DNA of 64,000 bases from Candidatus Woesebacteria bacterium (lineage in GTDB: Bacteria; Patescibacteriota; Microgenomatia; UBA1400; PJMF01). Shown in pieces: positions 33,389 to 33,677 of this stretch (position 1 is its first letter; each line of letters begins with the position of its first letter). The notes under the pieces are model-generated. The model had not been told where the DNA came from, did not search any database, and saw only the letters and a program-made list of their open reading frames with translations. A program made the translations under genes and the position numbers. The stretch covers positions 50,077 to 114,076 of the forward strand of contig JASFHL010000003.1 of NCBI GenBank assembly GCA_050123235.1. Reading direction: 5' to 3'.

Positions 33389-33677
33389 TAATTCAGGAAG
33401 ATTAAATATTTGATAGATTAAAATTGAAATATAGCCATAGCTAACTCCACTTTTACTAAAGATAAATATTGCAGTCGTTCGCTGCAACATTTCATTTATT
33501 TTTAAAATACAAGGCTCACTCGGTGAAGCTCGGCAGTATATTGATTGCTAGATCAAGCCTAGCCAGACCTCGCTTCAACACTCCAATATTTATCTTTAGT
33601 AAATGTTACGATTTAGCTTTAAGGCTTTTATTATAAGTAAATAGTAAAGGAATCAAATATTTAATCTTCCTGAATTA
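33389..33677. repeat. family-1 palindrome-embedded element, copy 1 (inverted orientation), nested in a second outer palindrome
   Basis: core 33472..33583 flanked by 20-bp perfect IR 33452-33471/33584-33603; outer 26-bp perfect IR 33389-33414/33652-33677. Confidence 0.6.

Follow-up and report, generated by a model that had tools for sequence, protein, structure and literature searches.

A family of hairpin repeats (family 1) exhibits a recurrent nested architecture in the 64,000-nucleotide stretch of DNA analysed here (the window), which is chromosomal DNA of a Candidatus Woesebacteria (Patescibacteria) MAG of about 34% GC. All three copies of the repeat form the apex of larger palindromes, the outer sequence of which is specific to each copy, and at copies 2 and 3 one of the outer arms is the end of a gene. 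The best explanation for the outer layers is that they are local DNA and not separate mobile elements.

The palindrome of copy 1 is located in a 1.8-kb non-coding stretch, with a methyltransferase gene and a tRNA-like sequence on its left and a gene of about 60% GC on its right. It divides into the following parts:

33356-33414, left outer arm of copy 1, 59 nt, the inner 27 nt of which pair perfectly with the right arm
33388-33414 and 33652-33678, perfect outer inverted repeat of copy 1, 27 nt, one arm being the exact reverse complement of the other
33415-33427, left spacer, with little complementarity to the right side in the arm alignment
33428-33478, long stem of family-1 copy 1, left side, with the stretch common to copies 2 and 3 beginning at about 33449
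33449-33475 and 33580-33606, inner inverted repeat of family-1 copy 1, 27 nt, 93%
33479-33576, plus strand, conserved family-1 core, 81-90% identity between copies
33577-33633, long stem of family-1 copy 1, right side
33616-33648, one-sided extension, common to copy 3 only
33652-33729, right outer arm of copy 1, 78 nt, comprising the perfect 27-mer (33652-33678), about 19 extra nt and a 21/24 match (33706-33729)

An outer inverted repeat enclosing copy 1 had been described in an earlier analysis of the letters alone (hereafter the sequence-only reading), and it is indeed present, being perfect over 27 nt rather than 26; its left arm reads CTAATTCAGGAAGATTAAATATTTGAT. None of 100 dinucleotide-preserving shuffles of the window contained any such match at three or fewer mismatches, and the nesting of inner within outer repeat is real, far beyond chance. 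The total of about 290 bp given by the same reading is too short. The outer inverted repeat in fact extends over 33356-33414 / 33652-33729, with the 27-mer as its best-kept and sole perfect part; it reaches 33370-33414 / 33652-33697 when gaps are allowed and ends with an outermost pair (33356-33379 / 33706-33729) matching at 21 of 24 positions; the whole palindrome measures 374 nt. The outer repeat is accordingly part of a longer inverted duplication, which in part realizes the finding that the sequence-only reading had named as telling against its own proposal, namely an outer repeat belonging to a longer duplicated region unrelated to an insertion boundary. Its observation of unequal spacers between outer and inner repeats holds, the lengths being 34 and 45 nt by the coordinates above and not 37 and 48 nt. 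The right spacer is the longer because it contains the one-sided 32-nt extension common to copies 1 and 3 (33616-33648 against the reverse complement of 49107-49137: 27/32 identical, score 32, shuffle maximum 24).

The layers of the copy-1 palindrome are unequally preserved: 27 of 27 positions match in the perfect part and 21 of 24 in the outermost pair, and a 19-nt indel accounts for the extra length of the right outer arm over the left. The family-1 stem inside them has about 50 nt per arm. The 374-nt palindrome folds as one rod (z = -9.5), and a 406-nt region is likewise predicted to form a single rod, of -134 kcal/mol versus -84 +/- 5 kcal/mol for shuffles. The outermost pair has a GC content of 46%, which is above that of its left surroundings; on the right, its arm at 33706-33729 continues into a GC-richer leader. 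Such a composition would fit copying after the arrival of the foreign segment, although 24 nt are no proof. The tRNA-like sequence on the left side (32473-32544, minus strand, 70-72 nt) is called tRNA-Leu(AAG) by ARAGORN; its D region is short and it contains a G3:U70 pair. Its score with the tmRNA model is 22.9 bits, and it matches no Rfam tRNA at the gathering score. It may be a degenerate tRNA or a tmRNA-like remnant beside the variable region.

Three Logan contigs of the run SRR11698124 match the window without mismatch. Two of them, L003 (27923-33536) and L001 (33509-39810), cover both halves of the copy-1 palindrome, which is thus no artefact of one assembler. That the structure arose by a chimeric join through the repeat, or as a fold-back artefact, is scarcely credible. 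The independent Logan assembly does break within the copy-1 core (33509-33536), but this second assembler gives both arms with zero mismatches and in unique context, the 28-nt overlap of the two contigs carries copy-1-specific bases at 33522 and 33534, and the complementarity from flank to flank itself argues that the flanks belong together. Elsewhere on L003, the Logan gene calls place a BrnT-like toxin and a CopG-like antitoxin between Dus and C39-like peptidase genes (window 29150-29800; contig 3766-4327).

Family 1 comprises three copies of a common 158-nt unit with 81-88% identity, all within 16 kb of one genome:

33449-33606, plus strand, unit of family-1 copy 1
46894-47051, minus strand, unit of family-1 copy 2
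49149-49306, minus strand, unit of family-1 copy 3

The unit is made of a core of about 100 nt flanked by AT-rich arms of 25-50 nt (TTACTAnAnATAAATATT), the terminal inverted repeats spanning 27-38 nt, or up to about 50 nt with gaps. It is the core, not the termini, that is best conserved. Of the two small hairpins in the core, one (GCTAG/CTAGC) co-varies, and on the window strand the orientation of the core in copy 1 is opposite to that in copies 2 and 3. Despite their sequence differences from copy to copy, the arms remain complementary, 10-11 stem pairs being changed on both sides. Apart from the one-sided extension in copies 1 and 3, homology between copies ends abruptly at the unit borders. 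All three copies exhibit the terminal inverted repeats around a short non-coding unit that characterize a MITE. There is no conserved ORF in the three copies; a protein-coding core was rejected, as copies 1 and 2 have an open frame that a stop interrupts in copy 3. A core derived from a tRNA or tmRNA was also rejected, since the core resembles neither the nearby tRNA-like gene nor tRNA-Asn, nor the core of another hairpin repeat of the window (family 2, below). No target-site duplication is found at the junctions of the three copies, the flanks being inverted and not direct, and the TA adjoining the arms is itself part of the inverted repeat. A Pfam scan of 40 of the 50 window ORFs of at least 100 aa identified no transposase.

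Exact-pattern scans found no more copies in GTDB genomes or IMG/VR, and a single chance match (L002) in JGI metagenomes. A covariance model of the family (R1) gave nothing new in the window, about 5 kb beyond it, the adjacent Logan contigs, or nine loci including those of the closest relatives (three relatives among them). BLAST of the palindrome against phage and plasmid collections returned no match, and no copy matched Rfam 15, whether at the gathering score or at E <= 10. Among the collections searched, the source organism is present only in the source assembly and one Logan run, and these collections contained no close relatives. The nearest relatives of a neighbouring 1280-aa gene are about 40% identical, and their loci (L005-L007) share only the coarse gene order. 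Family 1 is best read as a lineage-specific, non-coding, MITE-like hairpin repeat in Candidatus Woesebacteria.

The larger palindromes around the other two copies are as follows:

46841-47114, minus strand, copy 2 with its outer palindrome, outer arms 46841-46890 and 47064-47114
49102-49367, minus strand, copy 3 with its outer palindrome, outer arms 49102-49126 and 49342-49367

When each flank was aligned with the reverse complement of the opposite flank, copy 1 scored 58 (shuffle maximum 29), copy 2 scored 41 (shuffle maximum 35) and copy 3 scored 35 (shuffle maximum 35). AT-rich low-complexity sequence inflates alignment scores, and empirical nulls were used. A scan for inverted repeats across a 150-nt gap at 3168 window positions had its 99th percentile at 32; four loci reach 33, three of which are the family-1 copies, the top three of the window. 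Copies 2 and 3 fold as rods of about 270 nt (z = -6.3 and -3.6, respectively). Family 2, the second hairpin repeat of the window (27867-28008 and 55232-55373, 142 nt, 81% identical), exhibits no outer inverted repeats in the same flank test. Nesting is therefore no general property of intergenic DNA here. The family-2 copies have AT-rich arms of about 33 nt beginning with GTTTAT and a GC-richer core; each fills the gap between two tandem genes, and the Logan contigs break inside both.

The right outer arm of copy 2 includes the last ten codons of a GT4 glycosyltransferase gene (47083-47114). The last 29 coding nucleotides have an inverted near-copy across copy 2, at 46841-46872, with a score of 30 versus a maximum of 25 among 2225 other windows. 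The C-terminus of this protein, EIYLDFY, aligns with the conserved C-terminal YLxLW of 19 homologues; the gene end is thus ancestral, and the opposite arm of copy 2 is derived. Copy 2 accordingly exhibits one ancestral arm and one that is its inverted copy, as expected of template switching. An AT-rich terminator-like hairpin (AAGATAATCTT...AAGATTATCTTTT) at 32597-32631 is repeated with 83% identity at 46821-46855, where it overlaps the left outer arm of copy 2 and complicates the reading of that arm.

At copy 3, the left outer arm (49102-49126) corresponds to the last 8 codons and the stop of a GT2 glycosyltransferase gene (48149-49126), the last 25 nt of which have an inverted near-copy across the repeat, at 49342-49367 (score 35 versus a maximum of 32). 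The protein ends in an unusual hydrophobic tail, FFIYYFLK, which is not conserved in homologues, whose tails are varied and often basic, and which is homologous to the right spacer of copy 1. This tail may therefore be a part of the repeat unit and not of the gene, and the repeat may have replaced the native 3' end of the GT2 gene. An inverted copy of the gene end is therefore present at copy 3, while the ancestry of the tail is uncertain; at copy 1, neither arm can be demonstrated to be the original.

The surroundings of copy 1 include three further features relevant to the neighbouring GC-rich segment:

32933-32961, plus strand, promoter-like site close to consensus (TTGACT, 17 nt, TATAAT), directed through the palindrome at the GC-rich gene
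34335-36485, plus strand, gene for a secreted right-handed beta-helix protein of 716 aa, about 60% GC
36525-36554, plus strand, GC-rich hairpin followed by a T run, read directly in the sequence, closing the GC-rich segment

The beta-helix gene is foreign by composition. The best homologue of its product shows 32% identity over 44% of the protein and none is closer, so that the boundary of the foreign DNA is not mappable from a donor. The sequence-only reading had placed an abrupt rise in GC at about 33700; there is a rise, but only from about 0.30 to about 0.46, and the step to about 0.6 comes later, at about 34000-34350. If the promoter-like site is used, the palindrome would be located within a 5' leader of about 1.4 kb. 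The motif CCTATAATATTGACAG occurs there (32924-32961, plus strand) and at 36615-36652 (plus strand) and 46430-46445 (minus strand), three occurrences versus 0.05 expected, each belonging to a near-consensus TTGACA-N17-TATAAT promoter-like site. Judged by position, one of these putative promoters would serve an RmlD-like gene, and the other two are directed at the two GC-rich foreign genes, with leaders of 0.7-1.4 kb in between.

A second GC-rich segment (about 44350-46050, about 65% GC) exhibits no homology to the first. It contains a 379-aa ORF (44576-45715, minus strand) with a lipoprotein-like signal peptide, no Pfam domain and a GC-rich upstream region of about 330 nt. The sequence GCCCAKTTTCATTTWTCT is found at the right-hand GC-to-AT transition of both segments (36550-36567 and 46028-46045, 16/18 identical), a match that merely equals the best of 200 shuffles and may be due to chance. 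Both junctions of each segment are reproduced in Logan contigs, and the segments are therefore real insertions of foreign composition. The three family-1 copies and both GC-rich segments are all located within one 16-kb cell-surface glycosylation region, about 6 kb of which is absent from a relative of about 40% identity. This region is clearly variable, and the presence of repeats and GC-rich segments in it is a co-location, not a mechanism.

For the origin of the outer layers, we favour an account to which we would give an even chance: a hairpin repeat whose palindrome has been extended by inverted duplication of flanking DNA, probably via fold-back template switching. The hairpin element would have been in place first, and a stretch of one flank would then have been copied in inverted orientation onto the opposite side. 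Most likely, the nascent strand would have folded back at the hairpin and switched template within the same strand (intrastrand switching), in replication or repair. Repeated events of different ages would have left the perfect 27-nt layer, the more degraded outer parts and the unpaired patches. That the 374-nt rod of copy 1 lies in the leader of a GC-rich gene gained by horizontal transfer would be a coincidence, the rod not having brought that gene in. Template switching at quasipalindromes, raising their complementarity, is established (PMC7202029), and short inverted copies in genomes arise by short-range template switching (PMC9435742). The sequence itself shows the nesting, its recurrence at all three copies and the gene end in one arm of copies 2 and 3; the mechanism we infer from its products, and which flank was copied at copy 1, as well as any influence on transcripts, is likewise presumptive. 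Several points speak against the account. The three copies known are confined to 16 kb of one genome, the GT2 tail at copy 3 may be repeat-derived, neither arm of copy 1 is demonstrably the original, and the first 20 or so nucleotides of the left arm of copy 2 resemble the AT-rich hairpin at 32597-32631. A replication or recombination hotspot, one of the causes proposed in the sequence-only reading, comes close to what we favour. The turning point of cumulative GC skew that would mark a replication origin or terminus is absent from the site: the skew falls steadily across the window, with blips only at the GC-rich segments and no turn at copy 1. A more far-reaching version, in which family 1 systematically seeds outward palindrome growth, copying adjoining DNA including gene ends in inverted orientation, and thereby acts as a self-extending repeat building rods of 270-370 bp, appears rather doubtful to us.

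The same layers could in principle be distinct palindromic mobile elements or pre-existing hairpins (e.g. bidirectional terminators), with family 1 preferring the centres of palindromes. Some IS elements target REP sequences, and all three family-1 copies are indeed centred in larger palindromes; the genes on either side of copies 2 and 3 converge, a setting in which one expects terminator hairpins. The window also contains at least one AT-rich palindrome that is empty (23333-23382), and a second element might have the perfect 27-mer as a terminal repeat of recent origin. Nevertheless, the outer arms are found nowhere else in the 64 kb or in the collections searched, and none of the layers exhibits a target-site duplication. 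Ready-made targets are unlikely to consist of 25-50-nt arms with conserved coding sequence in them, and long palindromes are rare in the window, five of their nine loci being the repeat copies themselves. With a coding 3' end as one outer arm at copies 2 and 3, inverted copying of a flank fits better than insertion into a ready-made palindrome. Repeated palindrome-targeted insertion, which the sequence-only reading had put forward, is therefore not supported, the outer layers belonging to no repeat family that we found and one arm being coding at copies 2 and 3; we regard it as possible but unlikely. It seems still less probable that the rods of about 270-370 nt are a structured RNA with a long stem, or a regulatory element. 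Selection would then keep a fast-evolving outer stem paired, and the rod might act as an RNase III substrate, as a terminator or insulator, or as a leader element controlling the foreign gene. The 10-11 stem pairs changed on both sides among the three copies, the one co-varying internal hairpin, the strong folding of all three copies and the near-consensus promoter upstream of copy 1 would suit such a role, and Correia elements offer a precedent for hairpin repeats processed by RNase III (PMC2649163). Against it, the copies match no Rfam family, the core of copy 1 is oriented opposite to those of copies 2 and 3, and homology stops at the unit boundary without decay. G-U pairs are few and accord with the window strand rather than with how the element is oriented; G-U asymmetry was rejected as a test of the RNA strand, given these too small counts. 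Moreover, template switching also changes both arms, so that the compensatory changes need no selection. A structured RNA has no positive support beyond pairing that DNA-level mechanisms also yield.

A third alternative would make the palindrome a recombination site that captured the GC-rich gene, comparable to an integron attC or another att site. The gene immediately downstream of the imperfect palindrome of copy 1 is foreign in composition and has a terminator of its own, and copy 2 contains ATTCAAC...GTTGAAT, which by eye fits the attC R''/R' consensus. Nonetheless, the RYYYAAC/GTTRRRY motifs are absent from copies 1 and 3, the orientations of the copies are inconsistent, and a conserved 100-nt core is atypical of attC. 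The window contains no tyrosine recombinase, and no integrase of any kind lies within 16 kb, nor a transposase nearby, the only recombinase of the window being a serine recombinase 16 kb away in a separate island. No repeat was found to link the two ends of the first GC-rich segment, and the borderline 18-nt match mentioned above is the only repeat common to boundaries among the four of both segments. Copies 2 and 3 are about 0.85 and 3 kb away from the second GC-rich segment; they exhibit the same nesting and flank genes of native GC. The capture reading is thus largely refuted, and very improbable in our view. A role of the palindrome in acquiring the GC-rich segment, suggested by the sequence-only reading from their adjacency, finds no support, as nesting recurs at copies 2 and 3, no integrase or transposase is near, no repeat links the ends and the cumulative GC skew does not turn at the site. 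To the question of how a gene of 60% GC entered a genome of 34% GC, the palindrome gives no answer. The island of the serine recombinase (4115-17996) adjoins a tRNA-Asn gene (17961-18035) and carries the type I restriction-modification genes HsdR, HsdS and HsdM, an AAA_13 ATPase and a PD-(D/E)XK nuclease besides the recombinase, which is a large one. One relative (L005) has a similar pair of recombinase and HsdR at the syntenic place.

If flank copying at hairpins of this kind is general, it would offer very small genomes an easy way of gaining long inverted repeats, altered gene ends and structured leaders, and would mislead scans that take every nested palindrome for nested transposition. 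If family 1 were in addition self-extending, gene 3' ends and the leaders of newly acquired genes would be remodelled in a genome of the Candidate Phyla Radiation (CPR). Small hairpin repeats have hardly been described so far in CPR bacteria, and full-text searches found no paper on them.

Several known systems resemble family 1 in part. The Correia elements (CREE) of Neisseria, ERIC, RUP, BOX and the RPE of Rickettsia have the same size of 100-200 bp, with arms around a conserved core and no coding capacity. They too are intergenic, at gene ends or in leaders, and can overlap the last codons of genes. Family 1 differs from them in being known from three copies, with neither a target-site duplication nor a matching transposase found, and in having its core rather than its termini best conserved. 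We know of no further palindrome of local sequence around each copy in any of these families. For CREE, long hairpins are predicted in transcripts (PMC2649163), as they are for family 1. Like integron attC sites, the copies are imperfect palindromes adjoining foreign genes, with copy-specific sequence and conserved folding. In contrast to attC, which would have R''/R' boxes in every site and an IntI or an array in one orientation, they exhibit no conserved boundary motifs, no integron integrase in the window, inconsistent orientations and a large conserved core. REPINs, i.e. REP sequences mobilised by RAYT transposases, share with family 1 the intergenic, hairpin-forming inverted doublets and vertical persistence. 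The family-1 arms are longer, and its core is a conserved 100 nt; the window contains no RAYT (Y1 transposase) gene, and the copies have no GTAG-type conserved head tetranucleotide in common. The outer layers resemble, in their more perfect repeats and inverted copies of nearby sequence, the products of template switching at quasipalindromes (the Ripley model; thyA and lacZ reporters of E. coli), which arise by a nascent strand copying itself (PMC7202029, PMC9435742). The documented events span a few to tens of bases, whereas here arms of 25-60 nt face each other across a centre of 150-250 nt, possibly having arisen in several steps. Family 1 is accordingly best filed as a new lineage-specific hairpin (MITE-like) repeat, with flank-derived outer palindromes as its unusual recurrent feature.
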